Part shown: in pieces, positions 15,478 through 41,181 of the stretch
Position numbering within the stretch: position 1 is the stretch's first letter
How the letters are laid out: each line of letters starts with the position of its first letter
Translations under genes and position numbers: made by a program
Notes under the pieces: model-generated
What the model saw: the letters and a program-made list of their open reading frames with translations, nothing else
What the model was told of the DNA's origin: nothing
Database searches by the model: none
Assembly (NCBI GenBank): GCA_017411745.1
Contig: JAFQPM010000021.1
Coordinates: forward strand, 1,349 to 65,348
Source: Clostridia bacterium
GTDB taxonomy: Bacteria; Bacillota; Clostridia; Oscillospirales; CAG-272
Length of the DNA stretch: 64,000 bases
Direction of reading: 5' to 3'

Positions 15478-15486
15478 AAAAACAAA

Positions 15487-15522
15487 AAGAAGGCAAGTGA
15501 CTTTTCATCACTTGCCCTCTTT
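15487..15522 (-). terminator. Terminator of the 15527 gene
   Basis: AAGAAGGCAAGTGA..TCACTTGCCCTCTT. Confidence 0.55.
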
Positions 15523-15526
15523 GTAT

Positions 15527-24446: not shown

Positions 24447-24474
24447 GGACACATATCGCTTTTGGAGGGTTATT

Positions 24475-25755
24475 ATGGAGTTTTATTCAATCGCAGAAGT
24501 AGCAGAAATGTCTGGACAAAGTCAAAAAACAATACGCAGGCATATTGCTTCTGGCAAGCTTAAAGCTGATAGAGTTGGAAATAGATATCGCATTACCAAG
24601 GATCAATACGAAAAATGGTTAATATCTGATCTTGATCCCGAAAAAGATAATATCTTTAATGAAACCATTGTTGGAGAAGAAAATGGTGACTCAGTTAATT
24701 GGATAGACATAACTGATAAATGGGTTTACGATGGTTGGTCCAACACCAATTATAGAAATGGCTTTAATTTTATTGATTTGTTTTCTGGCGCTGGTGGTCT
24801 TAGTTGCGGCTTAACTATGGCAGGATTTACACCTATAGGAAGCGTGGAAATTATGCCTGAAGCGGTGTCTACTTATCGATATAACTTTGTTGAAACTAAA
24901 GGATTTGACGAGAATGTTGAAACAAGAGACATAAGAGAAGAAAATGTTAAGCAAGAATTGTATAAATCCGTTAAAGACAAACACGTGCATCTGATAGTAG
25001 GCGGCTTCCCTTGCCAAGGCTTTAGTATGGCTGGTCATCGTGTTGTTACTGACCCAAGAAACAGCTTATATCTTGAAATGCTTGAAATAGTAAAAAACAT
25101 TCAACCCGACTATGTAGTTATGGAAAATGTCGAAGGTCTTAGATCAATGTTAGATGGTAAGGTTGAAGCAAAAATTATCAGTGACTATAAGGAAGCAGGA
25201 TATGATATCAACGTAACTGTTCTTAATAGCGCAGATTATGGTGTCCCTCAGATTAGACGAAGGGTAATTTTTATTGGAAACAAACACGGTCTAACCAATT
25301 TCCATCCAAAGCCTATATACTCACCCGATAATTATGTCACTTTAGGTGAGGGCATAAAAAGATTTATGGCTATTCCCGAAAACAAACAAGTTAATCACAT
25401 CTTCACAAGGCATTCTGAAAAAATGATAGCACAAATGGAAGCTCTTCCCGAAGGTCAAAGTCTCTATGGAAATTATTCTGATGCTTGGAAAAAATCTCCC
25501 TGGGACAAGCCTTCTTGTACAGTCAAAGAAAATCATGGTGGTGTAAATATTCATCCCAAGCTTCCTAGAGTTTTGACCCCCAGAGAATTAGCTGCTCTTC
25601 AGTCATTTCCTGACGACTTTATTTTCCAAGGTTCTAAGAAGTGGCAACTTGTTCAAATTGGAAATGCAGTTCCCGCTTTGCTTGGAAAAGCAATCGGTGT
25701 AGCTGTTATGAAGGGCTTACAACAAATTGATGAAGATATCGAAAACAAAGGATAA
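24475..25755 (+). CDS. C5-cytosine DNA methyltransferase with an N-terminal excisionase-like HTH
   Basis: DLFSGAGG, GGFPCQGFS, MENVEG, PQIRRR, QIGNAVP. Confidence 0.95.
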   Translation: MEFYSIAEVAEMSGQSQKTIRRHIASGKLKADRVGNRYRITKDQYEKWLISDLDPEKDNIFNETIVGEENGDSVNWIDITDKWVYDGWSNTNYRNGFNFIDLFSGAGGLSCGLTMAGFTPIGSVEIMPEAVSTYRYNFVETKGFDENVETRDIREENVKQELYKSVKDKHVHLIVGGFPCQGFSMAGHRVVTDPRNSLYLEMLEIVKNIQPDYVVMENVEGLRSMLDGKVEAKIISDYKEAGYDINVTVLNSADYGVPQIRRRVIFIGNKHGLTNFHPKPIYSPDNYVTLGEGIKRFMAIPENKQVNHIFTRHSEKMIAQMEALPEGQSLYGNYSDAWKKSPWDKPSCTVKENHGGVNIHPKLPRVLTPRELAALQSFPDDFIFQGSKKWQLVQIGNAVPALLGKAIGVAVMKGLQQIDEDIENKG

Positions 25756-25760
25756 CAAGT

Positions 25761-26546
25761 ATGTCTCGCTATAATGATTTAGATATGCAAAGATGGCACG
25801 AATATGAAGACGTGCTAACTACATCGTTTTGGACCTTTCAAAGAGAAAATTCAGGTGTACATAACGCTAGCTATCATGGTAATTTTATTCCTCAAGTTCC
25901 GCGTCAACTTTTCACTAGATATACAAAAAAAGGTGACTGGATCTTAGATCCCTTTATGGGAAGTGGCACTTCATTAATAGAAGCTCAAAGAATGGGCCGC
26001 AACTCAATTGGAATAGAACTACAACCAGAAGTAGCTAAAGAAGTTGTTGGACGACTAAGACAAGAAATGAATCCTGACTGTTCAACAAATGTTTTGGTTG
26101 GAGATAGCAAAACTATTGATATAGAGAATGTCTTAAGAACCCATAACATTAAAAAATACCAATTCGTAATTTTTCATCCGCCCTACTGGGACATCATTAA
26201 GTTTTCCGAAAATGAGAACGATCTTTCTAATACAAAAACCTTGGATGAATTTTTAGATTCATTTGGGCAAGTAATAGATAACACAACTCAGCACCTTGAG
26301 AAAAACCGATACTGTGCAGTTGTAATTGGCGATAAGTATGCAAATAGTCAAATCGTTCCGCTTGGCTTTCATTGTATGAACCTTTTCCTACAACGTGGAT
26401 TTATGATGAAAGCTATTCTCGTCAAGAATTTCGATAAGACTCGTGGAAAGATGAATCAAAAAGCAATTTGGCGTTATAGAGCTCTTGCTAGTGATTTTTA
26501 CGTTTTTGACCACGAATACATCTTTATATTCAAAAAGGTGAAGTAG
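25761..26546 (+). CDS. Amino (N4-C/N6-A) DNA methyltransferase
   Basis: YHGNFIPQ, LDPFMGSGT, FHPPYW. Confidence 0.85.
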   Translation: MSRYNDLDMQRWHEYEDVLTTSFWTFQRENSGVHNASYHGNFIPQVPRQLFTRYTKKGDWILDPFMGSGTSLIEAQRMGRNSIGIELQPEVAKEVVGRLRQEMNPDCSTNVLVGDSKTIDIENVLRTHNIKKYQFVIFHPPYWDIIKFSENENDLSNTKTLDEFLDSFGQVIDNTTQHLEKNRYCAVVIGDKYANSQIVPLGFHCMNLFLQRGFMMKAILVKNFDKTRGKMNQKAIWRYRALASDFYVFDHEYIFIFKKVK

Positions 26547-26550
26547 AAAC

Positions 26551-27210
26551 CTACTTCACCTTTTCATTTATTACTCTGTTAAGTTCTTTTCTCCATTTTG
26601 ACGGATTATACCAAAAACAGCCTTCGCATCCGTTTTTATCGTCATATTTTTTGTTTCCAACATACCAAAACTCAATATCTCGATAACCGTTCGCTCTGTT
26701 CCCTGTTTTTTTGCATTCTTCGCAGTATCTTGATTTTAAAAGATTGTTTTTCTCCGTCAGGAGCATAAACTTATCTACTATCTGCTCGTCACTTAAGCCC
26801 GTATTATCATCTTCACTCCCAACCCACCTGACCTGTGGAATTCTATGGTCAAGTTCCAAATCTTTAGCTGGCTCTACGCGAAGAGTATATTCATCAACAC
26901 AACCAAACAACTTCTTTGCTCGAATGATAACATCTTCTGGAATATTAGATCTAGCTTTTATTCCAGAGAGATCTAGTTCAGTTGTTTTTAGTTTTCTGTG
27001 TATAGTTTGGGTTCCACAAGTAGGACAATTAATTTTCTTGAACCAATTACCATTTTCATCTTGATCTAATTGAATTCCCTTTTCTTGTCTCCAAACCTGC
27101 CACGTTTTAGCCTGACCACTTTTCAGCTCACATTTAGTGCAATGCCAATTGCAGTCAGACATCGTTTCAAAATCCAAATATTGATTGCTTCCTTTTTTGA
27201 AGGGGTTCAT
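26551..27210 (-). CDS. HNH-type restriction endonuclease subunit
   Basis: ELDHRIP..LLTEKNNLLKSRYCEECK..CEGCFWYNP. Confidence 0.7.
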   Translation of the reverse strand: MNPFKKGSNQYLDFETMSDCNWHCTKCELKSGQAKTWQVWRQEKGIQLDQDENGNWFKKINCPTCGTQTIHRKLKTTELDLSGIKARSNIPEDVIIRAKKLFGCVDEYTLRVEPAKDLELDHRIPQVRWVGSEDDNTGLSDEQIVDKFMLLTEKNNLLKSRYCEECKKTGNRANGYRDIEFWYVGNKKYDDKNGCEGCFWYNPSKWRKELNRVINEKVK

Positions 27211-27228
27211 TTATTCACTCCTGATCAC

Positions 27229-27831
27229 TTAATTCTTCTTTGTGAGGTGTTTCTTAAATTCCAGCGGATCATACCAATAACACCCAACGCAGGCATTTTC
27301 CTCTCCGTGATGCTCTGCACCACCTGCATAGTAAGACATAGGATATCCTAACTTTTTTGCATCATATCTTATGCCGCTTCTGCGACACTCCTTGCAGTAC
27401 TGACGTTTTGCATCATTTGCTGCCTTGCTGAGAGGCTGAAAATCTGAAAGTCTCTGATCTTCATTTCTCATTACTCGAGCCTCATTCTTCATACCATTCT
27501 TATGGTCTACTTCAGGATTTGAGGTTCCTAAAACAACACAACGTTGAGCTCTGATGACACGTTTAATTTCTGGACTAATGTTCTGGGAGAAATCGCCGTC
27601 GTTGAAACCATTCAACCGTACTCTGTCGATTCCATTTCCAGATGTGATGCTTTTATCAAATTCAACTATGTACCTTTTAGCAAGAGTAGATTCTTTTCTT
27701 GCCCAAGAAGCACCATTACCAAACTTGAGTTCTGCATACTCCCCAACAAACTCGGTAGTATTCACCCATCTGCTGACTCCATTTTCATTTGGCTGAGCAA
27801 GTTGAAGAAACAGTTCTGTTTTAGTAGCCAT
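27229..27831 (-). CDS. IceA1/NlaIII-like HNH restriction endonuclease
   Basis: LFLQLAQPNENGVSRWV..GNGASWAR; EVDHKNG..FQPLSKAANDAKRQYCKEC..CVGCYWYDP. Confidence 0.75.
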   Translation of the reverse strand: MATKTELFLQLAQPNENGVSRWVNTTEFVGEYAELKFGNGASWARKESTLAKRYIVEFDKSITSGNGIDRVRLNGFNDGDFSQNISPEIKRVIRAQRCVVLGTSNPEVDHKNGMKNEARVMRNEDQRLSDFQPLSKAANDAKRQYCKECRRSGIRYDAKKLGYPMSYYAGGAEHHGEENACVGCYWYDPLEFKKHLTKKN

Positions 27832-28047: not shown

Positions 28048-28143
28048 AGCGATTTGACAAAGCAAAAGCGCGCCATCAGAATCGTCTAGATTCTGTGGCA
28101 CGCTCAGGCTTGAAGCTGTGCGATAAAGCTAAAAACAAGGTTT

Positions 28144-28216
28144 CTGGGTGTGGCGCAGCTGGTAGCGCGCTACCTTGGGGTGGTAGAGGCAGCAAGTTCG
28201 AGCTTTGTCGCTCAAA
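28144..28216 (+). tRNA. tRNA-Pro(GGG), probably degenerate/pseudo
   Basis: Perfect D arm (GCGC) and anticodon arm (CTACC-TTGGGGT-GGTAG); T arm has G53-U61, acceptor has C1-A72, no CCA. Confidence 0.7.
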
Positions 28217-28252
28217 AAAAGCATTGAAACCATTAAAGTTTCAATGCTTTTT
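28214..28252. terminator. Terminator after the tRNA remnant
   Basis: AAAAAAAGCATTGAAAC..GTTTCAATGCTTTTT. Confidence 0.65.
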
Positions 28253-28273: not shown

Positions 28274-29221
28274 TTATATATCAGAACGAGCCTCCCAGAC
28301 AGCATAAAGCTGCATTTTGCGGCTCACGTTGATCGTCTCGCCGAGAGCGTACTTGACCTCACCGTCGGGAACGTCGCTCCAACCGACAAGTGTGTAGCCT
28401 TCCCTTTCAAATCCGCCCTCAAGCAATTTCAGGTCGCATCTGGTCGTGCCGTAAAGCTTTTTTACGCCCTTTGCGCGAGCTGATAAGCCTCCGTTGCCAA
28501 CGAGCAGTATCGTGCGCGTAAACGGCAGAGAGAGCAAAAAGAAGAATATGACTACGATAACGAACGCGGGCGCCAGATGCCAGTACGGCACTCCTATCAG
28601 CTTATGGAAGGTGCTGAGGATCGGTATACCGTCGGTGTTGTAGATATACGAAAAGCTCTGATTCTCCGCCATTATTCCCGCGCTCTTGAGTATTTCGGAT
28701 ATAACGTATACGAGAGTGAAATACCCAAAAACACAGCCGCTGACGGGCAAAATATACTTTCTCTCGGGGCGAAGTCTGCCCGAAGCGAACATCCAAAGCG
28801 GGCATATCATAGCAAAGCTGTGATAGAGCCAGGAGTTGAACACGATAGGCTCGTACCAATTAGCGCCTCCCCAGCGTGGATTGAGCGCAACGAGCGTGGT
28901 AGCCGCGGCAAACATCGAAAAGTAGAATGAATATTGCCTTGCCAGCTTGAATTTCGGTATAAGCATAAGCGGCAGTAGAATAAAGTTAAAATTACAGACC
29001 TGAAGCTGCTGCATAAGCAGAGTTTTAAGGTCAAGACCTCCCTTCCATGATAGCCCCATAGCAAAGCGATAAAATATCGCGCTTGAGCATATCACAACGG
29101 AGATGACTATCAACAAGTCCTGCCACTTTCTCGGCAGCTTTGCCACAGCCAAGCAGCTCAAAACCATAAACGCCGCCGTGGCAAGAAATAAAACTATGTG
29201 TTGTATGCTTCCTGGTGTCAT
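28274..29221 (-). CDS. YwaF-like integral membrane protein with a C-terminal InlB B-repeat-like domain
   Basis: About 7 hydrophobic segments; FEREGYTLVGWS..LYAVWE. Confidence 0.6.
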   Translation of the reverse strand: MTPGSIQHIVLFLATAAFMVLSCLAVAKLPRKWQDLLIVISVVICSSAIFYRFAMGLSWKGGLDLKTLLMQQLQVCNFNFILLPLMLIPKFKLARQYSFYFSMFAAATTLVALNPRWGGANWYEPIVFNSWLYHSFAMICPLWMFASGRLRPERKYILPVSGCVFGYFTLVYVISEILKSAGIMAENQSFSYIYNTDGIPILSTFHKLIGVPYWHLAPAFVIVVIFFFLLSLPFTRTILLVGNGGLSARAKGVKKLYGTTRCDLKLLEGGFEREGYTLVGWSDVPDGEVKYALGETINVSRKMQLYAVWEARSDI

Positions 29222-29222
29222 A

Positions 29223-30149
29223 TTATTCTGTAATTGTTATTTCGTAGGTTGTTTCGACTAAAATGCCGCCTTCCTTGTATTTGACCGTAAGCGTGTAGGG
29301 GCCTTTTTCCCCTTTCTCAAATGCCGCTTGTGCCGCTTCCCAACCGTAAACGTAACTGTTTACAAGACTGATGCGTTTGGTTGTACCGTCCTTGTATTCG
29401 CGAACGATAACTCCGCCGCTGGTATCAAGCCATTCGTCAGCCTTATATTCGATTTTAGGAAGCTCCTCAAGATAAATTCCTACCAATGTCGACGTAGGCT
29501 TTGGCGTCTCCTTTACCGTGATAGAAAAAGTCGCAATAAAGCCCTCGTACTGTACGCTTATAGTCTGCTTTTCCGCAGGTTCGGTATTATCAAATCCGGT
29601 TATTATACATTTGGAGATCGGAACTGTAGTTTGCTTGCCGTTTCTGCGAGTAACAGTTATCTTCAAGCCCTCATAATCCGCTTCTTCGCCAACGTAATAT
29701 GTCGTTTTGTTAGGTGTAGAGGAAATTGAGATATGACCGATCTCGTTTCCCTGCTTATTGGCACCTATGACTATCACTAAAAGCATGGAAATAAGCGCTA
29801 TTACCACGACAAGAGAGATTGAAATACCAATTATCGACTTGACGTTTTTAGGCTTACGAGCGCCCGAACCGCTATTCTTTTTTAAATTAACCGTATTCAG
29901 AGGCTGTGCGCCCTTCGGCTGCCTCTGCTGTTTTATTTTTACGTGCGATTCCTGCTTGACCTTTACGGGCTTTTCCCGCTTAACCTTGACAAGTCTTTCT
30001 GCCTTGGGGGTTTTAGGAGCCTTCGCGGGCTTGCTTATTTTCAAATTTACGGTATTGTCCTTCTTTGAAGGTCTGGGGGCTTTTGGTTCTTTAGGAGCCT
30101 TAACTTGCTTTTCTTTTTTTGGTTTTGTAGGCTTAAAATTAACAGCCAT
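29223..30149 (-). CDS. Membrane-anchored bacterial Ig-like (Big_3) protein
   Basis: Lys/Pro-rich N-terminus, one TM helix, two P.KT.Y..GE..D..G Ig repeats. Confidence 0.7.
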   Translation of the reverse strand: MAVNFKPTKPKKEKQVKAPKEPKAPRPSKKDNTVNLKISKPAKAPKTPKAERLVKVKREKPVKVKQESHVKIKQQRQPKGAQPLNTVNLKKNSGSGARKPKNVKSIIGISISLVVVIALISMLLVIVIGANKQGNEIGHISISSTPNKTTYYVGEEADYEGLKITVTRRNGKQTTVPISKCIITGFDNTEPAEKQTISVQYEGFIATFSITVKETPKPTSTLVGIYLEELPKIEYKADEWLDTSGGVIVREYKDGTTKRISLVNSYVYGWEAAQAAFEKGEKGPYTLTVKYKEGGILVETTYEITITE

Positions 30150-30240: not shown

Positions 30241-33200
30241 TTATTTCCACAGGCCATTCTTGAAGGCAAGCATCTTCTCAAGGAAGTAGACCAAGTCATC
30301 ATAAGTAATAATACCCTTACTAACAGCGACCTTAAAGTATTGAGCATTGAGAGCCACGAACTCATCCTCTGTCATAATATCAGCGAGGTCAGCATAGGTA
30401 TATAGGCCATATAGTTCAATGTCAGTCTGCATTTGAACCTTATCAAATGCCATATCTTGGGTAACATCAAACGGCATATAGAAATTACCCAATCCCTCTG
30501 TGGGAGTCAAAGTAAGCATGCCCTCTAGGAAGCAGTTGTAATGCTTGTCAGACAAAACAGAATAACTATCTGTTACCTGAATTTCAGAATGACAATCAAC
30601 CATTTTTACTTTGCTGAGGCCAGATTCTCCCGCTCTGATGAAGTTATGGCCAACATAATCTTTTGCATTTTCTGCATTAAGGAATACAAATTCACCAAGA
30701 TCCGCGTCGAAGATGCCATGTTCGCCAATAATGTTTATTACAGTTCCGTCATCAAAATACAGAGCGGTTACAATCTGCTCAGCTACACCGTGATTACCAA
30801 TAGCAGAAGCGGGGACAACATCATATTTACCATCATAGAAGTTCCAAACCAGCAACATATCCTCGTATGTTACATATTGAATTTCCTTCTGAGTACCGTC
30901 GGCCAATGTTACCAGAGTGTCAGGAGTAACACAACTATTCTTCTTTGCGAGAGTAAATGTAGCCGTATTCTTAACAGTCGTACCATTCTTTCCAGTATAG
31001 GAATATGTGAATGTAACAGTCTTATCTGTAGAATCATCATCCGCCTTACTATCATACATCCAATAGTTAGTACCGTCAACTTGTGTTCCGGTCACCTCAC
31101 TATCGCTAGCCTTAATAGACAAACCATTCAGATTAGATGCGGAAATAGATACTGTGAAGCTTGTGCCATCATCATTATAATCGGTAATTACCAAGCCTCC
31201 CAAAACTTCATAGTATGCCGAATAGTCCTTGTCAAATACCGAACCACTTTCTACCCACTTGGAGGTCTTGGTAAGACCGTCTACGTTTATTACTGCACTA
31301 GGATGGTTGCTGTTCGATACAACCACCGTAACCTCATACGTGTATTCATTGTTTGCGGTCTGCTTGGAACCATCATTATTAAAGAACCAGTTATCCGTAA
31401 CCACATAAGTAAGCGTATATGTGCCTGCCTTATTAAAGGTGACCTTTTTGCCATTCACAGTGCCGCCAGTGCAGGAAATGTTGACAGCAATAGTCTGACC
31501 TGAATATTTAGATACAGTATATACAGATGCATCCAACGTGCACGTTTCACCCGCGGGAATATCTATTTTGTACTGAACTACACCATTCGTAAGTGTAAGA
31601 TTATGCTTGAATACAGGCTTCAATACCGCCTGTGTGTTAGGAACATAACTGTTGTCGTAGCTGGGAATAGCGCTTACAGCAGGGCTAGGTATATGCGTAT
31701 AAATAGTAGCATCGTACGTCTCACCCATCACTTTCACAGAAGCATCAGTAGTGCTATAGGGCACAGAAGCCTTGTTTGTACGATTATCATTCACTGCCTT
31801 AGTTCTCGTTCCAAGGAACAGAATACCTGTGTTGATGTACTTTGTTCCACCAACCTCGTGGTAAAGGCTGGAATTATTTACTAAGTTGCTGGCAATAGAC
31901 TGAATGTCACTATCCAAATACTGCTTATCACTCTCTGATACCCAGTTATACTGGTTGAGTGTGCCTTCCAACGTAACATCACACGTATTACTAATACCGG
32001 ATTCCACAATTACACCTGCACCAAGAACCGTACCGGAACCAATGGTAGCGGTTGTAGGCACCTGCACCGTTGTAACATCCTTCAGGGTAAGAGAACCGGT
32101 TTGCAACCAAAGGTTACAATAGTTACCACCCACCAGAGTAGTATTTTCAACGTACAAGGACGTACCGTTAGCCATAACGGGCTCACGGAAACCGGAAATA
32201 TAAGAGTTAGAAATTGTTGCATTTCCGGTCGTATAAATTCCCGCAACATAATAAGGCTTGCTGGAAGAAACCTCGCTCTGATAGATCAGCTCAGGATATA
32301 CAGGACCATTGATCACAACATTATCAATAGTACCACCATTCAAATAGAACAGCGCGTTGTTAGAGTTAGTTGTAGCACTAGTAAAGCTCTGCGCATTGAT
32401 CGCAAATCCGTTACCGTAAATAGTACCGGAAATAGCAGTCTTGTTAGCAGTTCCCCAAGTAATATCATTAAGCAGAACGTAGTTAGTAGCGCCGCTGAAA
32501 TCACTCGCAGAGGTCACGTTCTTACCGTTTACGACCTCAACTGCAAGGGTTGCTGTTCCCTGTTCCGTAGTTACTTCTATGATCGCAACACCCGTGCCGC
32601 TGAATTTAATGGTACTGCTTGCCCAAGTATCCTTTGTCAAGTCGGAGGTATAGGTTGCCGTGAAGCCACTGCCGCTTGTTGCGATCGCGTTGAGGGTTCC
32701 CGTACCTGAGGTCTTGGAAGCATCGAAGATATTCAACGTAATGGAATCAGGTGCCTTCTCCGTATTGAACAGCTTATCCAAAGTAAAGGCATTTCCGTTA
32801 CCCACGCGGAAGAGATAGGTCGCACCCATCTTAACGTCCTCGGTAATATCGTTGACCTCGAACGGACTCGAGGAATTATCAACTACCTCAATTGCAACGG
32901 TATCGGTAATGTATTCACCGACCTTGATCGTCAAATTCTGTGTGCCAAATTCTTCTTTCGTAAGCACAAGATTGTTGCCGTCGATGGTAAATACATTTCC
33001 CTCACCCAATTCAAAACTAAGAGTATCGTCAAGCTCGATTCCCTCGATGGTGTAGTTATATGAATAAGCAGAAATGCTGCCCAGCGAGTACGAATCCTTT
33101 GTTCCGTCGTACGTTATCGTAGAAGCGAGTACATCGCCCGCATTGTCGAGCTCAATAGAACCAAACTCAGTATCGAGAGTAACTGCGTTTATACGGACAA

Positions 33201-34176
33201 TGGCAATAGTTTTCGTTAAAGATTTAGGCTCACTTTCGCCTACGGTAGCTGTAGCCGTAATAACGACCTCGGAATCTGCTCCAACAGCAGGAAGCGCGAG
33301 AGTTACCTTTCCGGACTCATCAACAGTAGCAAGAGCATTCGAAGATCCCCAAGTTACAGTAACTTCTCCAAGCTCTCCACCGTTATCGGATACGAAACCG
33401 CCCGCTGTCAAAGTAAACGTTTTTACGTCGTACGGAACGTAGATCGTATCACCTGCGGAGATTCCCTTGTCTGCAGTAACCGTGAAGGACTCTAATTTTG
33501 CTAACTCGCCAAGTCTTAAATCAAGGGCATCTGCAATAGCCTGAAAATGCTCGGCTGCCTTGTTGAATGCTTGTGCTGCCTCTGTTAACACTTCTTTCGC
33601 TGCTTCAATGGCAGTTGTATCACCGCTTTCCATTGCAACCAACATATCGCCAATTATTCCACTCAGATCAAGGCAAAAATAGCGGTCTTTATGCATTCTT
33701 ATGTCGTCTTTATGAGCATCATAAAAAAGACTGTTTCTGGTCGTTTCATTCACATCAGGTTCTGCCTGCTCTGTGGTAGCACCAAGCAAAATGACCTTGT
33801 TTGCAGTTTTGTTTTCTGCCTCAGGACTGTTCTGAGGTGTGGCATCCAAATCTGAATACGTACTAAGAACGATTTGATTTTTTTCAACGTCATAGTAATA
33901 GCTCAAACCGTACTTCGCGCTTCGGGGCGCAAAATTGTTTGCCTTTGCCTCACCGTATGTCTCCTTAATCAAGGCATACAGATCATCCGCATTTTCGACC
34001 TCGTTGATAGCCAGCTGCGTATTAAGCGAGGTTATCTCCGCCTCATCAGCAGAGATGTTCGCCTTTTCGACCAAAGCTCCGAACGTAGGGATCATTACCG
34101 CCGCAAGCACAGCTACAACCGCGATAACGATTACAAGCTCTACAACGGTAAAGGCTTTAACGTTTCTCTTTTTCAT
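30241..34176 (-). CDS. Giant type IV pilin-like adhesin with a C-terminal Hint (Hedgehog/intein) domain
   Basis: Class III signal KKRNVKA|FTVVELVIVIAVVAVLAAV; Ig-like/beta-rich middle; S-CVTPDTLVTLADG, IIGEHGIF, YSVLSDKHYNCFLEGMLT. Confidence 0.85.
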   Translation of the reverse strand: MKKRNVKAFTVVELVIVIAVVAVLAAVMIPTFGALVEKANISADEAEITSLNTQLAINEVENADDLYALIKETYGEAKANNFAPRSAKYGLSYYYDVEKNQIVLSTYSDLDATPQNSPEAENKTANKVILLGATTEQAEPDVNETTRNSLFYDAHKDDIRMHKDRYFCLDLSGIIGDMLVAMESGDTTAIEAAKEVLTEAAQAFNKAAEHFQAIADALDLRLGELAKLESFTVTADKGISAGDTIYVPYDVKTFTLTAGGFVSDNGGELGEVTVTWGSSNALATVDESGKVTLALPAVGADSEVVITATATVGESEPKSLTKTIAIVRINAVTLDTEFGSIELDNAGDVLASTITYDGTKDSYSLGSISAYSYNYTIEGIELDDTLSFELGEGNVFTIDGNNLVLTKEEFGTQNLTIKVGEYITDTVAIEVVDNSSSPFEVNDITEDVKMGATYLFRVGNGNAFTLDKLFNTEKAPDSITLNIFDASKTSGTGTLNAIATSGSGFTATYTSDLTKDTWASSTIKFSGTGVAIIEVTTEQGTATLAVEVVNGKNVTSASDFSGATNYVLLNDITWGTANKTAISGTIYGNGFAINAQSFTSATTNSNNALFYLNGGTIDNVVINGPVYPELIYQSEVSSSKPYYVAGIYTTGNATISNSYISGFREPVMANGTSLYVENTTLVGGNYCNLWLQTGSLTLKDVTTVQVPTTATIGSGTVLGAGVIVESGISNTCDVTLEGTLNQYNWVSESDKQYLDSDIQSIASNLVNNSSLYHEVGGTKYINTGILFLGTRTKAVNDNRTNKASVPYSTTDASVKVMGETYDATIYTHIPSPAVSAIPSYDNSYVPNTQAVLKPVFKHNLTLTNGVVQYKIDIPAGETCTLDASVYTVSKYSGQTIAVNISCTGGTVNGKKVTFNKAGTYTLTYVVTDNWFFNNDGSKQTANNEYTYEVTVVVSNSNHPSAVINVDGLTKTSKWVESGSVFDKDYSAYYEVLGGLVITDYNDDGTSFTVSISASNLNGLSIKASDSEVTGTQVDGTNYWMYDSKADDDSTDKTVTFTYSYTGKNGTTVKNTATFTLAKKNSCVTPDTLVTLADGTQKEIQYVTYEDMLLVWNFYDGKYDVVPASAIGNHGVAEQIVTALYFDDGTVINIIGEHGIFDADLGEFVFLNAENAKDYVGHNFIRAGESGLSKVKMVDCHSEIQVTDSYSVLSDKHYNCFLEGMLTLTPTEGLGNFYMPFDVTQDMAFDKVQMQTDIELYGLYTYADLADIMTEDEFVALNAQYFKVAVSKGIITYDDLVYFLEKMLAFKNGLWK

Positions 34177-34212: not shown

Positions 34213-35904
34213 TTACTCTACGTTCAAGGTCATCAACTCCTGAATACTAGTCACGCCGTTTACCACAAGATTGCGGCAGGAGCTCCAAAGAGTTACCATT
34301 CCGTTTTGTCTTGCGAGGTCGCGAAGCACCTCAAGATTCTTTTCGTGCGATACGGCATTTCGCATATTTTCGTTCATATACATGATCTCGTGCACCGCTA
34401 TTCTGCCCTTGTATCCCGTGTGATTACAGAACTGACAGCCCTGCGGACGATAAATACTGATAGGCTCGTCTATACCGAGTATTTGCATTTCCTTTGGTGT
34501 GGTCTTGCTCCTTCTTCGGCACTCGGGACAAAGTCTCTTGACAAGACGCTGAGCGATAACACCCACAAGCGCGTCTGCAACGAGGTAATCCGCGATACCC
34601 ATATCCTCAAGACGCGTGATCGCTCCCGTCGCGTCGTTAGTATGCAGAGTACTGAATACAAGGTGTCCCGTAATAGCTGCTCTGACGGCGATCTCCGCGG
34701 TCTCCTCATCTCGCATCTCACCGATCATTATGATATCGGGGTCCTGACGGAGTATGGAACGGAGCGCGGTTGCAAAGGTCATATTCGCCTTTGCGTTCAC
34801 CTGAGTCTGATTTATTCCGTGCATAACGTACTCAACGGGGTCTTCAACTGTGACAATATTCACCGCAGAGGTGTTCACTTCCTTGAGGAACGAGTAAAGA
34901 GTCGTGGATTTTCCGCAACCCGTAGGTCCTGTCAGAAGTATGATTCCGTGAGGCTTCGAGAGCATTTTGTTTATATACACGTTTTCATGCTCAGTAAATC
35001 CAAGGTCCTCACGCGTGAAGCGGAAGGACGTTTTATCAAGTACTCTGATAACGAACTTTTCTCCGAACATAGTGGGAAGCGAGGACACACGGAAGTCAAA
35101 TTCCTTGCCACCGATCACCATATCGATTCTTCCGTCCTGAGGTATTCGACGTTCGGCAATATCAAGTCCTGCCATTATCTTGATTCGCGCGCATATTGCG
35201 GAATAAGAATTTATCGGAAACTCTGCTCTTTCCTGAAGGTCACCGTCAATACGGTAACGCACCTTAACGACCTTCTCAAAGGGCTCGATATGTATATCAC
35301 TCGCACGATACGGCACTGCCTCTCTGATGATTGAGTCGACCAGACGAACCGACGGGTTGTTGACGACGTCGTTTTCGGCTACAACATCCTCATCTGCGGC
35401 TGCCTTCTTATTTGAGAACATCTCCGCCTCACCCTCGGTATTGAGGTCGTTAAGCGCCGCTGACGTTGACATAACTACCGCGATCGAGTCTATATATCGA
35501 TCGATCTGTCCGGGCGGAACGAGAACGTAATCGGTCGGGCAAACTATCTGCGAGGAGATAGCTGACATAGCCGCGCAATCAAGCGGATTGCCCGTTGCTA
35601 TAAGCAGCTTCCCTTCGGGGCTCATGCTGACGGGAATTATCTTGTAACGCTTCATAAACTCGAACGTAAACATATCGAACAACGATTTGTCTATGTCAAG
35701 CATATCTATTTCCACGTAAGGCAAGCAATAATATCCGCCTAAAACGGGTAATTCCTTGACCTCGGTCGTGTACTCCTTGGTAAGCATATAATCACGTACC
35801 GAAACCTTAAGTCTCTCACAATCCTCAAGGATCTGGTTCGCTTGCTTTTTCTTTATTATCTTTTTGTAAATGTAAAATTGCAGCAGATCTCTATTTATAT
35901 TCAT
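34213..35904 (-). CDS. pilB: Type IV pilus assembly ATPase (PilB/GspE)
   Basis: ASDIHIEP, GPTGCGKST, TVEDPVE, LRQDPD, STLHTN, Zn cysteines. Confidence 0.93.
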   Translation of the reverse strand: MNINRDLLQFYIYKKIIKKKQANQILEDCERLKVSVRDYMLTKEYTTEVKELPVLGGYYCLPYVEIDMLDIDKSLFDMFTFEFMKRYKIIPVSMSPEGKLLIATGNPLDCAAMSAISSQIVCPTDYVLVPPGQIDRYIDSIAVVMSTSAALNDLNTEGEAEMFSNKKAAADEDVVAENDVVNNPSVRLVDSIIREAVPYRASDIHIEPFEKVVKVRYRIDGDLQERAEFPINSYSAICARIKIMAGLDIAERRIPQDGRIDMVIGGKEFDFRVSSLPTMFGEKFVIRVLDKTSFRFTREDLGFTEHENVYINKMLSKPHGIILLTGPTGCGKSTTLYSFLKEVNTSAVNIVTVEDPVEYVMHGINQTQVNAKANMTFATALRSILRQDPDIIMIGEMRDEETAEIAVRAAITGHLVFSTLHTNDATGAITRLEDMGIADYLVADALVGVIAQRLVKRLCPECRRRSKTTPKEMQILGIDEPISIYRPQGCQFCNHTGYKGRIAVHEIMYMNENMRNAVSHEKNLEVLRDLARQNGMVTLWSSCRNLVVNGVTSIQELMTLNVE

Positions 35905-35920
35905 TCAGTCACCTCCTAAA

Positions 35921-37132
35921 TCAAGCAAGGGTGCTCATAATGGCAAGCATAGGGGAGTAAACCGCAAAAAACAGCACTCCGACTATAAGACCCATTATCA
36001 CAAGCATTGTGGGTTGGATCTTGGAGGTCAGCGAAGTGAGCGAGGTATCGACCTGATCATCAAAGAACGCGCAAGAACGGGAAAGCACTTCCTCCAAGGA
36101 AGCCGTTTGCTCTCCGACGGCAAGCATCTGGAGAAGCATGGGGGGAAACAGCTTTTGCTTTTGGAACGCATCCGTAAGCGTGACACCGTTGTGTACGTCG
36201 GTTGCCGCTTCCTCAAATCGTTCCTTAACGTAACTGTTACCAAGAATAATAGTTACGGCATCAAGCGCGCTGGCAAGATCCATTCCGCTTGAAAGCAAGA
36301 TGCTGAATGCACGCGCAAAACGCGCGGTTATCAAGTTGACCTGAATGCGTCCGATAAGAGGCGCTTTGATCTTTATTACGTCTATGACTCGCTTTCCCTT
36401 TGCAGTTCTGGAAAGCAAGAAGATCACACCGCCAAGAATAATGATCGCGGCAATCACAAGGCCACCGTAAACCAAGAAGAAATCCGAAATATCATATACC
36501 GCTTTCGTTAATCCCGTGATCTCAACGTCAAGGGACGCGAGCGATTCTCGAAAAGTAGGAACGACGAACGCAAGCATCAGTATAGCTATGGCAACCGTCA
36601 TAAGCGCAAGCATAGACGGATACGATAGCGCAGATTTTACCTTTCTTTTTATAGCGGAATCCTTCTCATAATAGTCCGCGAGGGAGACAAACACCGTATC
36701 GAGCTTTCCGCTTGCTTCTCCAACGTGAACCATGCTGCAGAAAAAATCAGGAAAGATCTTCTTATGCTTGTCAAGAGCCTCGGAAAGCATTGCTCCGCCC
36801 TTTATGTCCTCACTGATTACCTGAAGTACGGACTTAAAATACGCAGAGTAAGGCTGAGTTTTCAGAATGTCGATACATTCGAGCAACGTAATGCCCGTAG
36901 ATAGCATAATAGCGAACTGTCTGCAGAAGGTAGTAAGCTCACTCAGCTTTACCTTTCCCGTACCGAGCGTGAAGAAAGCGGACGGCGTGCCTCCCTTGTA
37001 GACGGAGGCAGAAACAAGATACAAGTTTTGCTTTGTAAGCTGAACGGCAAGATCCTGTTCATCTTCGGCAATAAAAATGCCCTTATATTTTTTCTTCTGC
37101 AAATTTACCGCTACGTATTTGTATGTAGGCAT
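35921..37132 (-). CDS. pilC: Type IV pilus platform protein (PilC/GspF)
   Basis: FCRQFAIMLSTG, VGEASGKLD; two T2SSF domains. Confidence 0.92.
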   Translation of the reverse strand: MPTYKYVAVNLQKKKYKGIFIAEDEQDLAVQLTKQNLYLVSASVYKGGTPSAFFTLGTGKVKLSELTTFCRQFAIMLSTGITLLECIDILKTQPYSAYFKSVLQVISEDIKGGAMLSEALDKHKKIFPDFFCSMVHVGEASGKLDTVFVSLADYYEKDSAIKRKVKSALSYPSMLALMTVAIAILMLAFVVPTFRESLASLDVEITGLTKAVYDISDFFLVYGGLVIAAIIILGGVIFLLSRTAKGKRVIDVIKIKAPLIGRIQVNLITARFARAFSILLSSGMDLASALDAVTIILGNSYVKERFEEAATDVHNGVTLTDAFQKQKLFPPMLLQMLAVGEQTASLEEVLSRSCAFFDDQVDTSLTSLTSKIQPTMLVIMGLIVGVLFFAVYSPMLAIMSTLA

Positions 37133-37157
37133 AACCTTTCACCTCACTCTCTTTTTA

Positions 37158-37943
37158 TCATCTAAGAAACGACAGATACCAATTAAGTATCTGCGTTCCA
37201 AAAAGTATTGCAACGCTGAAACCAATGATCAGGAACGGCGCAAAGGGAAATTCCCTATCTTCCCCTTCTTTGCCTTTGGTTGCGATCGACATAATTATTG
37301 CGGCAGGCACGGTTGCGATGATCAACGAAAGGATCAAACGCTCCCAACCAAGCAATAATCCCGCCACGAGTGCGAGCTTGACGTCGCCACCGCCCAGTCC
37401 TTCTCTCCCTGTCACCTTTTCGAATACCCAAGCAACGAGGAAAAAGACTGCAAATCCGGAAGCCGCGCCAATAATATGCGACAGCCAACCATAATCCTTA
37501 TCAAAGAAAATATTTATTATTCCAAGCACGAGCAAAATTATCTGAAAACGATCAAATATCAGCTTATGCTCAAGATCAATGAAAAATATACAGATAAAGA
37601 CCGAAAAAACCAACGCATAAATGCAGGTCAATGCGATGCTCTTTTCCCAAAAAAGATGAACGCAAAGGACCCACAAAACCGCGTTTGCGATCTCAACTGC
37701 CGTGTATCTGAAGGATATATGACCCTTACAGCTTCGGCATTTACCGCCAAGGATCAAATAAGAGATCACGGGGATATTGTCGTACCAGCGGAGCTCGTAA
37801 TTACACGCGGGACAATGCGAGTTGGGCTTTGCAATGCTCATTTTGTTGGGCACGCGGTATATGACCACGTTAAGAAAGCTTCCGACGCATAAGCCTACGA
37901 TCCCCGCAAGAATATAGGCTACCGCCAAATAATACTTATCCAT
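37158..37943 (-). CDS. pilD: Prepilin peptidase
   Basis: GSFLNVVIYRVP, CPAC..CRSC, GLGGGDVKL, PFAPF. Confidence 0.93.
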   Translation of the reverse strand: MDKYYLAVAYILAGIVGLCVGSFLNVVIYRVPNKMSIAKPNSHCPACNYELRWYDNIPVISYLILGGKCRSCKGHISFRYTAVEIANAVLWVLCVHLFWEKSIALTCIYALVFSVFICIFFIDLEHKLIFDRFQIILLVLGIINIFFDKDYGWLSHIIGAASGFAVFFLVAWVFEKVTGREGLGGGDVKLALVAGLLLGWERLILSLIIATVPAAIIMSIATKGKEGEDREFPFAPFLIIGFSVAILFGTQILNWYLSFLR

Positions 37944-37953
37944 AAGCTTTCCC

Positions 37954-39186
37954 TTAGAATCTGTTTGCCGAGTTTATCTGGCTCGGGAACAGACCGCCGT
38001 ACAGTTCAAGGTTTTGGCAAACGATTGGGAGATCAGCAACACCGTTCAAATGGGTAAACGTGATCCCGTTCTCGCTTGATTCCTTGTTCGCCACGTCTAC
38101 GACGAACGAGAGATCTTCGGGCAGATTCACGCATACGAAGCGAGGCTTATCGATCTCAGTGATTTTTTCGTTGCTATGTATAAGAGTCAACGCCCATTTC
38201 ATGAAAACTCTGAAGTTTTCATAAGCAATTCCGTCTTTTGTTTCGGGGATCTCACGAAGCATGAATTTGGGAAGATTGCGCTGACTCTTTCTGGAGAAGA
38301 TCTTCAAATTATGCCCCTCTTTTTCGGGAACGACCTCCTCGGGTGCATCCTCCTCATCACCCTCGGGATCGTAATTCTCAGAAAGATCATCACGATTATC
38401 CGAATACTGATCCCAAGCATCTTGATAGGAATCTGATCCCATAACAGTCAGCTTTTTGGATTGTGCCCTTTCCCTTGCGTTAAGAACCGTAAGCTCAGCA
38501 TAGGAATGGTCAAACAGAGCGTCCTCACGCACTACTTTGGGATTTCTCAAAAATTCAACGCCAAACGGGAGCGTATAGAATCCCATGACCTTACCGCCCA
38601 CAACGAATACGAATCTCGAATATATATCCTTTACGTCGAGGAATACGTAAGAAGCGTTTTTAAGCTTGGGATTAAAAAGCGTTGCCGCCGCAACCGACGA
38701 AGCAGACGCAAAGGAAAGCGTGTCGACCAAAAGCTTGTTTTCAGAGCAAGCGGAATAGATCGACGAAACGATACTGTTCTGCACCGCAGCTATACCGATG
38801 GTCGAATATTGCTTATTCTGATCTGCCATCTGAGCGATAATATGCAGATCCTTGTAGTTTCGGTAAAGACCGCCAAGAGTTGTATCAAGCATCTTTTGAG
38901 TCTGTGCCGAGCCCTTGACCGTAGGTATCCTTACCGTGTCGGTAAGAACTGCCGAATCGGGCAGAATTACCGTGACCTTGCGGATAGACTCGGAAGGAGT
39001 ATTAGCCGCAAAATCCTTCACGGCATCCTTGAACTTATCAAAAAAGTTCTCGTCGAGCTTTACCCCCGCATAGCTTTTTATATTATGAGTGATCGAGCTC
39101 TTATCGTTACCGACCATTGAATAAAAGTGAATGGCGGAACGATTGGTATCGATCGCTATTGTTGTCATATAGTTAGATTTTGCCAT
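37954..39186 (-). CDS. PilM-like cytoplasmic pilus protein with an acidic insertion
   Basis: IAID N-terminal strand and FLDV motif of the actin-like fold; position in the pil operon. Confidence 0.5.
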   Translation of the reverse strand: MAKSNYMTTIAIDTNRSAIHFYSMVGNDKSSITHNIKSYAGVKLDENFFDKFKDAVKDFAANTPSESIRKVTVILPDSAVLTDTVRIPTVKGSAQTQKMLDTTLGGLYRNYKDLHIIAQMADQNKQYSTIGIAAVQNSIVSSIYSACSENKLLVDTLSFASASSVAAATLFNPKLKNASYVFLDVKDIYSRFVFVVGGKVMGFYTLPFGVEFLRNPKVVREDALFDHSYAELTVLNARERAQSKKLTVMGSDSYQDAWDQYSDNRDDLSENYDPEGDEEDAPEEVVPEKEGHNLKIFSRKSQRNLPKFMLREIPETKDGIAYENFRVFMKWALTLIHSNEKITEIDKPRFVCVNLPEDLSFVVDVANKESSENGITFTHLNGVADLPIVCQNLELYGGLFPSQINSANRF

Positions 39187-39215
39187 TGTTTTTCTCCATA
39201 TCGCAAAATGTTAAA

Positions 39216-39590
39216 TCAGTTCGGAGATGAATAACGCCAAACCATCACGTTGCCGGTGTCATCAACCTCAACGTATAGCATTACGTTTTTTTCTGCGTCA
39301 TTTTTATGCCAAACCGTCAACACGCGGTTTTCCGCTTTGCAAGTGTAATTTCCCAATGTTGTCGGCTGCTCTGTAAATGAGCTTGCGTCTGCTGATCTTG
39401 CGTCTGCAATGAAATTCTCACCTATCTGATCAAGCTCGGCTCTTTGAGCTATCTTGATATTCTCTATTTCACCTTGATAGTGTCCTATCAAAGCAAAAGA
39501 TGAGACCAAGAAGCAAAGTGAAAATATGACCATCATAAAAAGGAGCGCATTTTCAAGCGCTATTCCCTTTTTGCTTTTAAGTATCTTCAT
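39216..39590 (-). CDS. Minor pilin-like protein
   Basis: KSKKG|IALENALLFMMVI. Confidence 0.65.
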   Translation of the reverse strand: MKILKSKKGIALENALLFMMVIFSLCFLVSSFALIGHYQGEIENIKIAQRAELDQIGENFIADARSADASSFTEQPTTLGNYTCKAENRVLTVWHKNDAEKNVMLYVEVDDTGNVMVWRYSSPN

Positions 39591-39988
39591 TATTTCGCCC
39601 CCTTTTCGTATGAGAACGAAATTATTACTTCGTCTTTATTGTTTCTTATATCAATTTCAAATTCGCTACTTGTAAAATCGGCATTTAATACTGCTGCAAA
39701 TTTATTTTCGGCTACGTAACGGTATTTTGAGCCTCCCGAATACTCCAAACCTTCGATACCTGCAAACTCAACGTTGTCTGTAAATTGACCGGAATTCTCC
39801 GACGCCTTGAAGCACTCGAGGATATTGTGCGCAAAATCCTGCGCTTCGCTGATGTTGGCTTGCTTGACTCTCGCGGAAATAGCTGACAGAACTACGGAAA
39901 GTGCCGCGATCGTCACGATTGCGATCATCGCCAGAGCTATGACCGTTTCCATTACGGAAAAGCCGCTGTTTCTTTTAGTTTTTCTCAT
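39590..39988 (-). CDS. Minor pilin
   Basis: KRNSG|FSVMETVIALAMI. Confidence 0.8.
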   Translation of the reverse strand: MRKTKRNSGFSVMETVIALAMIAIVTIAALSVVLSAISARVKQANISEAQDFAHNILECFKASENSGQFTDNVEFAGIEGLEYSGGSKYRYVAENKFAAVLNADFTSSEFEIDIRNNKDEVIISFSYEKGAK

Positions 39989-40004
39989 TCTCGCTGCCTC
40001 CTTA

Positions 40005-40463
40005 TCAGTTTGCACAGCGCAGAGCAAAAACAAAGCTCTTGTCAGCACTGTCGGAGCCAACTCGGGTAATTTCGCATTTTATCAGATTGTCTTGGATCAC
40101 AAATTTGATCTTGCTGATCGTATGCAGATTATCAATCTGTTTGCCGCCGAGATCAATCGTGCCGTTTGATACGGTAAAACCTTGATCCCCTGTTATGTCC
40201 GAGAAATCAGCGCTCGGATTATCTCTTTCCGCTATCCATTTGTATAGCTCCTCTTTGACGACGGCACAATCCTCCAAAAAGTCATATTCTTCCTTGTTGG
40301 AGGTTGAAAATTCCTTCATAGATGCAGAAAACGAAACTATCATAGCGGAAACTATTGCCACGATCGCCAAGACGATGCAAAGCTCGGCAAGAGTAAATCC
40401 ACCCTTGCCTCGTGCAGCAATATTATGCTCTGATAGCGTATTTATCCTACGTTTTCTGCCCAT
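40005..40463 (-). CDS. Minor pilin
   Basis: KGG|FTLAELCIVLAIV. Confidence 0.8.
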   Translation of the reverse strand: MGRKRRINTLSEHNIAARGKGGFTLAELCIVLAIVAIVSAMIVSFSASMKEFSTSNKEEYDFLEDCAVVKEELYKWIAERDNPSADFSDITGDQGFTVSNGTIDLGGKQIDNLHTISKIKFVIQDNLIKCEITRVGSDSADKSFVFALRCAN

Positions 40464-40494
40464 ATTTTGCCAACCTTTTCTAAAAAAAGTATCA

Positions 40495-40530
40495 AAGCAC
40501 TCTACACCCGCAAGGAGTGCAGAGTGCTTG
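40495..40530 (-). terminator. Hairpin between the major pilin and minor pilin genes
   Basis: AAGCACTCT.CAC..GTG.AGAGTGCTT. Confidence 0.55.
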
Positions 40531-40575
40531 CGTTTTACATTTTAAAAGTTAAATTCTAGATTATTTGTTTTCGTC

Positions 40576-41181
40576 TTAGGGAGTTACTTTCTCTACTGTC
40601 CAAACACCGTTGTTAAATTTGAATTCGTATCCAGTAGGCGCCTCAGCACCAGCAGTGATCTCACAAGTTGTAGCATTAGCGCCAAACTTAAAGGTTATGC
40701 CTTCAGCAGTACCTTCTTCATCAGCGGCGATAGTTTCATCAGCGTTAGCCAAATCGTAAGCTTTCTCGTAAGCATAGTTAACCTTTGCCTCGAGCACTGC
40801 AGCCTTATCGGCATCAGTAGATTTTTCTGTATTCCAAGCGTTGTCCTTAAGTGTAGATGTATAGTCCTTGTTTTCATCAACGTAAGTAAAACTAATATTA
40901 GCCTTACCATATTCATCATATTCTACATCATATACTACGAAAGAATCTCCAACTTTGTAAATGTCGTCTTCTCCGTCCTTGCCATCAAGGTTACCGTCTG
41001 CAAGGTCAAGAGCGTAAGCTTCCTTATAAAGCGATGTTGCTGCCTGCTGCACTGCACTCTTGTTTGCCTTCTCGATAACACCACCGAAAGTAGGAATCAT
41101 AACTGCTGCAAGAATTGCAATAACTGCGATTACGATTACAAGCTCTACGATTGTAAAGCCCTTCTTGTTAGACTTTTTCAT
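40576..41181 (-). CDS. pilA: Major type IV pilin
   Basis: KKG|FTIVELVIVIAVIAILAAV; first gene, consensus promoter, followed by a hairpin. Confidence 0.85.
   Translation of the reverse strand: MKKSNKKGFTIVELVIVIAVIAILAAVMIPTFGGVIEKANKSAVQQAATSLYKEAYALDLADGNLDGKDGEDDIYKVGDSFVVYDVEYDEYGKANISFTYVDENKDYTSTLKDNAWNTEKSTDADKAAVLEAKVNYAYEKAYDLANADETIAADEEGTAEGITFKFGANATTCEITAGAEAPTGYEFKFNNGVWTVEKVTP

Follow-up and report, generated by a model that had tools for sequence, protein, structure and literature searches.

A giant gut-Clostridia type IV pilin with a Hedgehog-like Hint domain and conserved tail as a candidate self-cleaving C-terminal cap

To our knowledge, Hint domains are the sole protein modules that turn a backbone peptide bond into a thioester, and outside the inteins we know of a defined use of that thioester in Hedgehog alone, where it serves cholesterol transfer. 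Hint domains of the A-type BIL and polymorphic-toxin pre-toxin (PT-HINT) kinds end in His-Asn. Here, we describe a Hint domain with an attached tail at the C terminus of a giant type IV pilin. Its gene lies in a 64,000-nucleotide stretch of DNA (the window) from a Clostridia bacterium (Oscillospirales, CAG-272; assembly GCA_017411745.1, contig JAFQPM010000021.1, positions 1,349 to 65,348).

Several described systems come close to parts of this protein. BIL domains are Hint domains found in variable regions of bacterial secreted and surface proteins, where they self-cleave rather than splice (Amitai 2003 and Dassa 2004, summarised in PMC5874633). In Hedgehog, Cys143 carries a branched thioester intermediate, according to a 2025 paper. 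Other bacterial secreted proteins end in a divergent Hint-like domain, which is described as neither intein, Hog, nor BIL (Burglin 2008, PMC2362128; Dassa and Pietrokovski). Among pilins, one survey expects modules grafted onto type IV pilins to sit at the pilus tip and gives an extreme case of 860 residues (Raynaud et al. 2021, PMC8179133).

Fold and conserved residues of the C-terminal module

A sequence-only reading of this DNA had placed a Hint domain of about 141 residues at Cys1082 (codon 30931-30933), with a tail of about 89 residues behind it. The codon and the motifs quoted are found in the translation, and both lengths agree with those obtained here. The features concerned are as follows.

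30241-34176, minus strand: giant prepilin-type open reading frame, 1311 amino acids, the final large gene in its type IV pilus operon
30931..30936, minus strand: predicted scissile junction between Ser1081 and Cys1082 (conservation and alignment to residue 1 of inteins and Hedgehog)
30505..30933, minus strand: Hint domain, residues 1082-1224, 143 amino acids (model, VIA-align, and Foldseek)
30718..30720, minus strand: block-B His1153, invariant (243/243)
30244..30504, minus strand: conserved helical tail, residues 1225-1311, 87 amino acids (model and conservation)

Searches with the module alone returned intein_Nterm at an E value of 0.092 from NCBIfam and chance globin and repressor matches (E≥0.18) from a phmmer search of the PDB, and an AlphaFold model from the single sequence had a predicted local distance difference test (pLDDT) score of 34. 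The window module was aligned with 25 short relatives (alignment A1, 26 sequences). The resulting profile matched the Tetrahymena BIL2 domain in the PDB with an E value of 6e-4, in register from Cys1 through the block-B His, and the AlphaFold model built with A1 reached a pLDDT of 92.1 and a predicted template modeling (pTM) score of 0.88, with the Hint part mostly above 94. Foldseek with this model gave 62 PDB matches at E≤0.001 (best, 1.6e-9); the 50 matches listed are inteins, BIL domains, or Hedgehog without exception. In a VIA-align comparison with 48,161 chains, every one of the 30 chains with a Z score of 8 or more has the Hint fold, and the top scores are tied between the NpuDnaB intein (18.0), BIL2 (17.9), Hedgehog 1at0 (17.8), and a Clostridium thermocellum BIL domain (17.6), at root mean square deviations (rmsd) of 1.8 to 2.9 Å over 134 to 144 residues. 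The model shows the horseshoe beta fold with pseudo-twofold symmetry of the Hint superfamily, together with the position-1 nucleophile and the block-B His, and structure prediction and profile searches agree that the proposed Hint domain is present.

Model residues 15 to 157/159 align with inteins from residue 1 to the last, and residues 15 to 159 align with Hedgehog residues 258 to 402; Cys1082 falls on residue 1 of the inteins and on Cys258 of Hedgehog. Because the structural alignment spans the inteins from first to last residue, we set the Hint domain at residues 1082 to 1224 and the tail at residues 1225 to 1311. The tail was modelled jointly with the Hint domain as five short helices at high confidence. 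As part of the module model it had no structural match in VIA-align (best Z, 3.2), an Atlas feature search with residues 1226 to 1311 gave scores of 0.82 to 0.85, within the range of shuffled controls, and no likeness to the sterol-recognition region of Hedgehog was detectable.

The module was cut from 243 proteins and aligned, and the residue counts that follow come from this alignment. In relatives that are otherwise 25 to 55% identical, Cys1082 is kept in 242 of 243 (the remaining one has Ser) and the block-B His1153 in all 243; Thr1087 (240), Gly1094 (241), Phe1141 (243), and Asn1214 (238) are further conserved Hint positions. The residue before Cys1082 is Ser in 97, Gly in 84, and Thr in 17 of 237 sequences, 198 in sum. 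At position 1224, which structural alignment places at the site of the terminal Asn of inteins, the residues listed are Thr (177), Asp (24), and Ser (20), with no Asn among them; Pro follows directly in 150 of 207 sequences. The absence of a terminal Asn noted from the sequence alone is thereby borne out. A tail not conserved among homologues had been named as a refutation of the sequence-only reading, and this refutation fails: the tail is present in 242 of the 243 relatives and is as conserved as the Hint domain (Asp1245 in 226/241; Asp1252 in 233, Tyr1256 in 237, Gly1257 in 242, Tyr1261 in 240, Lys1282 in 236, and Gly1288 in 239 of 242). By these counts, the front junction retains the equipment for an N-to-S acyl shift, and the equipment for cleavage at the back end is missing. 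From conserved residues and the modelled fold, thioester formation and cleavage between Ser1081 and Cys1082 are well supported.

Relative to Hedgehog, a linear offset of the 1at0 alignment puts His1153 exactly on His329. The same offset puts the general base Asp303 (Asp46) on the variable residue 1127, which adjoins a conserved Asn-His-Gly at 1128 to 1130 (His in 220 of 243), and Cys400 (Cys143) on Thr1224; both placements are leads. A PDB search with relative P0233 for residue-level mapping of Asp46 returned no Hedgehog chain, so that mapping stays with the linear offset. At the level of Pfam, the Hog family PF01079 was the commonest match (9 of 26 relatives at E≤0.01, spanning roughly profile positions 8 to 97 of 213), and relative P0233 scored 30.2 bits against a cutoff of 29.7. 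The domain is thus closest to the Hog type in Pfam, as had been proposed, although not through the window protein, which had no match to PF01079 at E≤10 and so falls below its gathering score. PF07591 touched 1 of the 26 relatives. Hint_2 (PF13403), used as the model of B-type BIL domains, also matched 1 of 26 (E value, 0.0014) and gave no match to the window module at E≤10.

The module can now be set beside the described systems. Like Hedgehog/Hog (PF01079; 1at0), it sits at the C terminus of a secreted protein and has a small residue before Cys at the junction, the block-B His, no terminal Asn, the Hint fold (rmsd, 2.0 Å over 138 of 145 residues at the Z of 17.8), and an extra C-terminal region, which in Hedgehog is needed for transfer. 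In contrast to Hog, it is bacterial, sits on giant adhesin-like proteins, has a tail without detectable likeness to the sterol-recognition region, has a variable residue at the Asp46 equivalent and Thr, Ser, or Asp at that of Cys143, and has no known adduct. BIL domains of the A and B types (2lwy; 6tmm/6y75) are the best PDB profile match (BIL2) and score Z values of 17.6 to 17.9, but the module lacks the His-Asn end of the A type, and its invariably attached 87-residue tail is part of neither type. A-type BIL and PT-HINT domains (PF07591) differ further in that the module has no Asn and its tails are homologous in 242 of 243 proteins rather than a variable toxin domain. Unlike inteins, whose C-terminal Asn (or Gln/Asp) precedes a +1 Cys, Ser, or Thr of the C-extein that becomes joined to the N-extein, it has no C-terminal Asn and lies at the extreme C terminus rather than inserted in a conserved site of a host protein. 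The proteins of Burglin (2008) are likewise secreted bacterial proteins with a divergent Hint-like end; they are set apart by their occurrence in Proteobacteria and Myxococcus and by a shared Cys-containing upstream region. The module would work like a Hog or BIL domain yet falls outside the inteins, the A-type BIL/PT-HINT domains, and the PF01079 gathering score. A literature search that covered sources other than bioRxiv supplements and subscription journals found no paper on a Hint domain with a type IV pilin or on the Hint-tail module, and we regard the module as an undescribed Hog-like variant.

Distribution of the module among giant surface proteins

A homologue search of 1.84 billion cluster representatives (50% clustering) found at least 3055 representatives with the module at E≤1e-3, of which 1149 reach E≤1e-30. 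Nearly all matches span query residues 10 to 235 or so and form the C-terminal end of proteins whose lengths run from 230 to 5800 residues. The module ends within 30 residues of the C terminus in 239 of the 243 aligned proteins; in the 4 where it is internal, 240 to 520 residues of Ig-like repeats follow. When N-terminal classes were assigned by regular-expression rules, 93 of the 243 had a Sec signal or N-terminal anchor, 52 a SipW/TasA-type N terminus (...TFAWFTD), and 36 a prepilin leader, and 62 were fragments or unclear. For the SipW/TasA type, TIGR04088 was above its cutoff in 2 of 3 proteins tested, and 10 loci have a gene for a SipW peptidase close to the module gene. Among 80 genome loci, two of which (L007 and L080) overlap on one contig, 88 module genes comprise 8 of the prepilin class, 17 of the SipW class, 35 with a hydrophobic N terminus, 23 cut by contig ends, and 5 others. 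The tail, for which a search behind Hint domains in other Clostridia surface proteins had been proposed, follows them across the Sec, SipW, and prepilin classes. The further idea that the arrangement is a special property of a pilus subunit does not hold, since the same module caps giants led by all three types of N terminus.

A FastTree tree built from the 243 modules requires at least 50 changes of N-terminal class over its 181 labelled rows, compared with a shuffle mean of 75 and a possible minimum of 2, and at least 9 changes of the prepilin class are forced by well-supported branches. The class is clustered on the module tree yet has been reassorted many times. Because the same module caps, and shuffles among, Sec-, SipW-, and prepilin-led proteins, its role is taken to be independent of pilus assembly; judged from the sequences, the Hint-tail cap appears to be a generic, exchangeable module of giant gut-Clostridia surface proteins and not a pilus device.

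Exchange is also visible within the giant pilin gene. Over the first 720 residues, relative P0088 is 93 to 100% identical to the giant pilin in the majority of 60-residue windows, with four at 73 to 85%, and identity falls to 61 to 73% by residues 781 to 1020 and to 25 to 41% in residues 1141 to 1311; by its sequence, P0088 is evidently an allele of the gene. In a feces metagenome from a different study (run X5), a contig of 4196 nt is about 93 to 96% alike over 28940-30149 and 30837-33178, and the 687 letters between 30149 and 30837, which make up most of the module, are replaced in it by 650 unlike ones. The module is exchanged between alleles of the giant pilin gene.

Tandem pairs of module-bearing giant genes occur in 8 of the 80 loci (L005, L007, L008, L014, L030, L066, L076, and L080), and such copies would favour the recombination seen between modules. 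The window's own genome (1.84 Mb, 97% complete) has one copy. The module was found in 3 of 24 genomes of the same genus, in 0 of 16 from other families of the order, many of these genomes being incomplete, and in 14 of 399 genomes (8 of 217 genera, up to 3 copies per genome) of an even draw of the class. At least 407 of 599 candidate genome-contig stretches encode a relative of the module protein. The 78 loci kept come exclusively from metagenome-assembled genomes, labelled mostly Oscillospiraceae, Faecousia, Acutalibacteraceae, Eubacteriales, or Clostridia, from animal gut, rumen, and feces, and metagenomes of gut and feces, from two or more studies, contain DNA of the gene at a share of at least 0.41. 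Labels from outside the Clostridia stand on three module contigs: L006 (uncultured Alistipes, 3.2 kb), which may be a binning error, and L064 (Bacilli) and L070 (Anaeroplasmataceae), which may be cases of real spread.

The pilin carrier, its passenger, and the linked genes

The remainder of the giant pilin and the genes around it have the following layout.

34153..34176, minus strand: class III (prepilin) leader, residues 1-8 MKKRNVKA, with a predicted cut before Phe9
33457..34152, minus strand: pilin carrier module, from residue 9 to about residue 240, with the alpha1 helix at 9-56 and a globular part (PDB pilin alpha1 matches)
31315..32817, minus strand: passenger core, residues about 454-954 (Ig-like parts and a GNGF-rich, probably beta-helical part; tblastn)
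34213..41181, minus strand: pilus genes upstream of the giant pilin, whole block (Pfam)
34213-35904, minus strand: PilB (Pfam T2SSE, E value 2.6e-139)
35921-37132, minus strand: PilC (Pfam T2SSF, E value 4.8e-58)
37158-37943, minus strand: prepilin peptidase (Pfam Peptidase_A24, E value 3e-19; A24_N_bact, 3.2e-35)
37954-39186 and 39216-39590, minus strand: two genes of 410 and 124 amino acids, placed by position in the operon
40576-41181, 40005-40463, and 39590-40060, minus strand: three small pilins (Pfam N_methyl)
29223..30149, minus strand: linked gene 1, membrane protein of bitopic topology that carries two Ig-like domains of the Big_3 family (Pfam Big_3, E value 1e-18)
28274..29221, minus strand: linked gene 2, integral membrane acyltransferase of the TMEM164-like kind, with an Flg_new repeat at its C terminus (Pfam TMEM164, E value 4.3e-10)

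The 1311-residue open reading frame, its pilin N terminus, and its place in a pil operon, all of which had been read from the DNA beforehand, were confirmed. The N terminus, MKKRNVKA followed by FTVVELVIVIAVVAVLAAV, matches the alpha1 helices of solved pilins, best that of Geopilin domain 1 (E value, 3.4e-8); its residue 9 lines up with the first residue of the solved pilins in their mature form. The Pfam N_methyl match is weak (E value, 6.9e-4; 19.5 bits against a cutoff of 21.2), and the NCBIfam pilin models match at 4.8e-6 to 1e-4, every one below its own cutoff. The protein has the marks of a type IV pilin: its leader is short and basic, the -1 residue is of the Gly/Ala kind and the +1 residue of the Phe/Met kind, and Glu5 and a hydrophobic alpha1 helix are present. 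The genes for the prepilin peptidase (PilD), PilC, and PilB stand immediately upstream in the same orientation. Like the modular type IV pilins described, it has a pilin module with a functional module behind it; at 1311 residues, it exceeds the 860-residue extreme named in PMC8179133. The 410- and 124-residue genes had no match in Pfam or NCBIfam and, by position, may be PilM/N/O-like alignment parts. The 410-residue gene is kept at 36 to 78% identity in three related operons.

Locus L074 holds a second giant prepilin of about 960 to 980 residues right after its TMEM164-like gene (12883-15759, plus strand), with an unrelated passenger and without the Hint-tail module. It is 43% identical to residues 1 to 248 of the giant pilin. 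Because the two share these residues but not the passenger, we consider the first 240 or so residues a reusable pilin carrier, and one such carrier therefore displays different cargos. The passenger core has no Pfam family and no solved relative apart from an Ig-like piece; an Atlas feature search gave clusters of the GLUG motif, known from beta-helix proteins, at 0.87 to 0.90 as a lead. By tblastn (E≤1e-5), the core was matched in 60 to 65 of 81 loci at about 27 to 33% identity. The Hint-tail module thus usually travels with a larger unit that includes this shared core of about 500 residues. In metatranscriptome run X19, a 322-nt contig of 96% likeness lies in the passenger (32659-32980) and other scattered pieces are 85 to 90% alike; cover is absent over most of the giant pilin gene, and such libraries can contain DNA.

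The Big_3/TMEM164-like pair stands directly downstream in 8 loci, each with a prepilin-class giant gene or a truncated copy: 7 of the 8 prepilin-class loci (the exception is L071) and L002. For the TMEM164-like gene, NCBIfam TIGR02206 matched below its cutoff (E value, 7e-5). PilB, PilC, and PilD were not found in the fetched flanks of 4 of the 8 pair loci (L011, L013, L040, and L047), and in a relative with a 78% identical PilB the operon ends there, without giant pilin and without the pair. Because the trio of giant pilin and pair is found without pilus genes in the fetched flanks, and the pilus operon without the trio, we consider the trio a cassette added to pilus loci. In the same-genus genome G006 and the near-identical locus L074, PilB is 93 to 94% and the TMEM164-like protein 90 to 91% identical to those of the window, compared with 61% for the Big_3 gene, 51% for the passenger, and 48 to 49% for the module. 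Among the module loci examined, no neighbour gene is common to every N-terminal class, which argues that the Hint-tail unit is self-sufficient.

Beyond the pair, a tRNA-Pro(GGG) at 28143-28217 (plus strand) lies at the exact boundary between about 35 to 38% GC below 28 kb and 44 to 50% GC in the pilus-cassette region, and contigs from four metagenome runs share the tRNA-Pro and are then unlike the window before 28139-28144. Because contigs diverge at this boundary, the restriction-modification block next to it may be a strain-specific island beside the tRNA. It is composed as follows.

24418-27831, both strands: restriction-modification cluster (Pfam)
24418-25755, plus strand: C5 cytosine methylase fused to a helix-turn-helix
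25761-26546, plus strand: N6/N4 methylase
26551-27210, minus strand: IceA-family gene, only the C-terminal half of the model matched (E value, 3.4e-7)
27229-27831, minus strand: IceA-family gene, full length (E value, 5.5e-69)

Fate of the junction and what it would mean

The reading we favour, to which we give about an even chance, is that the protein is a giant modular type IV pilin whose last 230 residues are a disposable, self-cleaving pro-domain cap that acts by hydrolysis or thiolysis. After export, the prepilin peptidase would take off the 8-residue leader, and the Hint domain and tail would fold into a single compact unit, as in the model. Cys1082, aided by His1153, would attack the carbonyl of Ser1081 and convert the peptide bond to a thioester, as the conserved residues and the fold suggest. 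Because the back-end Asn of inteins is absent, Hint and tail would remain joined and the front junction alone would break. By default, water or a small thiol would resolve the thioester and free a mature pilin of about 1073 residues ending in ...KKNS. In that case, the cap would act as a pro-domain that holds back maturation until the full length of the protein is outside the cell, with the tail as a docking part for the precursor or as a timer of the cut.

Several observations weigh against this reading. The last 244 residues alone match no Pfam family at E≤10, the literature searched gave no biochemical test of any member of the module family, and the -1 residue of the leader is Ala in 23 of the 36 prepilin-class carriers (the canonical Gly in 13). 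Thr or Ser is kept at 1222 (240 of 243) and at 1224 (197 of 243) and could supply a second nucleophile of the kind that Hedgehog has in Cys143, which would take the chemistry beyond a simple cut. Above all, the tail is conserved as strongly as the catalytic core, beyond the need of plain self-cleavage, and BIL domains cleave without such a tail, according to a review. The conservation of the tail therefore favours a Hog-like ligation, in which the tail would be an adduct-recognition region that presents a specific nucleophile to the Cys1082 thioester, so that the passenger leaves with a covalent C-terminal adduct; the acceptor might be a cell-envelope or cell-wall amine, a lipid, a host or dietary glycan, or a partner protein, with the TMEM164-like acyltransferase possibly involved in the pilin class. 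We hold this to be possible but rather doubtful. Its strongest argument is that a discarded cutter has no obvious need of an invariant 87-residue partner domain, here modelled as one unit with the Hint at a pTM of 0.88. It also draws on the Hog-type architecture (secreted N-terminal part, small residue before Cys, Hint without terminal Asn, and C-terminal extension, by the Hog definition of PMC2362128), on PF01079 as the commonest Pfam match, and on the membrane acyltransferase homologue that follows prepilin-class genes in 8 loci, 4 of them without nearby pilus machinery. The strongest counterargument is that no acceptor site or universal partner is recognisable: the tail resembles no known acceptor-binding region in sequence or fold, appears by eye acidic rather than amphipathic-hydrophobic, and no partner gene is common to the three N-terminal classes. 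A second covalent anchor at the C terminus would, moreover, fit poorly with extension of a pilin held at its N terminus.

The same conserved residues and fold would also serve an uncut precursor displayed as a warhead, whose junction thioester reacts with amines or hydroxyls of host or food surfaces and so binds the passenger covalently. Internal thioesters of Gram-positive adhesins bind the host in this way, and the module is carried by giant gut-bacterial surface proteins of Ig-like and beta-helix-like build; however, Hint junction thioesters, in inteins and Hedgehog alike, are short-lived equilibria rather than stored bonds, and the data point to no target, which makes the warhead improbable. 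We consider it more improbable still that the Hint domain is catalytically dead and kept as a structural or binding domain. The window's own module does lie below Pfam thresholds, and the Thr of the intein TxxH block-B motif, three residues before the His, is not kept (position 1150 is Ile in 168, Val in 46, and Leu in 24), but near-perfect conservation of Cys1 and the block-B His in 243 otherwise divergent sequences argues for activity. A polymorphic-toxin arrangement, with the tail released as an effector and the downstream membrane protein as immunity, is the least probable and was rejected. In its favour, the C-terminal region differs between alleles, and the Big_3 gene is only 61% identical between two relatives whose flanking genes are 90 to 94% identical; against this, the residue for back-end cleavage is missing, the 242 tails are mutually homologous and not swapped for unrelated domains, PF07591 touched a single relative, non-pilin classes lack the Big_3 neighbour, and in run X5 the module is replaced while Big_3 is still about 93% alike. 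A true intein was likewise rejected, given the lack of a terminal Asn, the Pro that mostly follows, and the extreme C-terminal position in 239 of 243 proteins.

A Hint domain with an obligatory and equally conserved tail is a large family without Pfam annotation, and it caps the largest surface proteins that Clostridia of gut and rumen have; several species carry multiple copies. With it, the catalogue of modular type IV pilins gains a putative self-processing module. If the self-cleaving cap is all there is, cleavage would be a common maturation step for adhesin-like proteins, and the family would offer protein engineering a compact and diverse set of N-cleaving Hint domains. If ligation is true, it would be a new bacterial chemistry of protein attachment and would give a handle on the origin of Hog-type transfer; Hog-like transfer would then provide thousands of proteins of uncultured gut Clostridia with a sortase-independent route to covalent attachment or lipidation.

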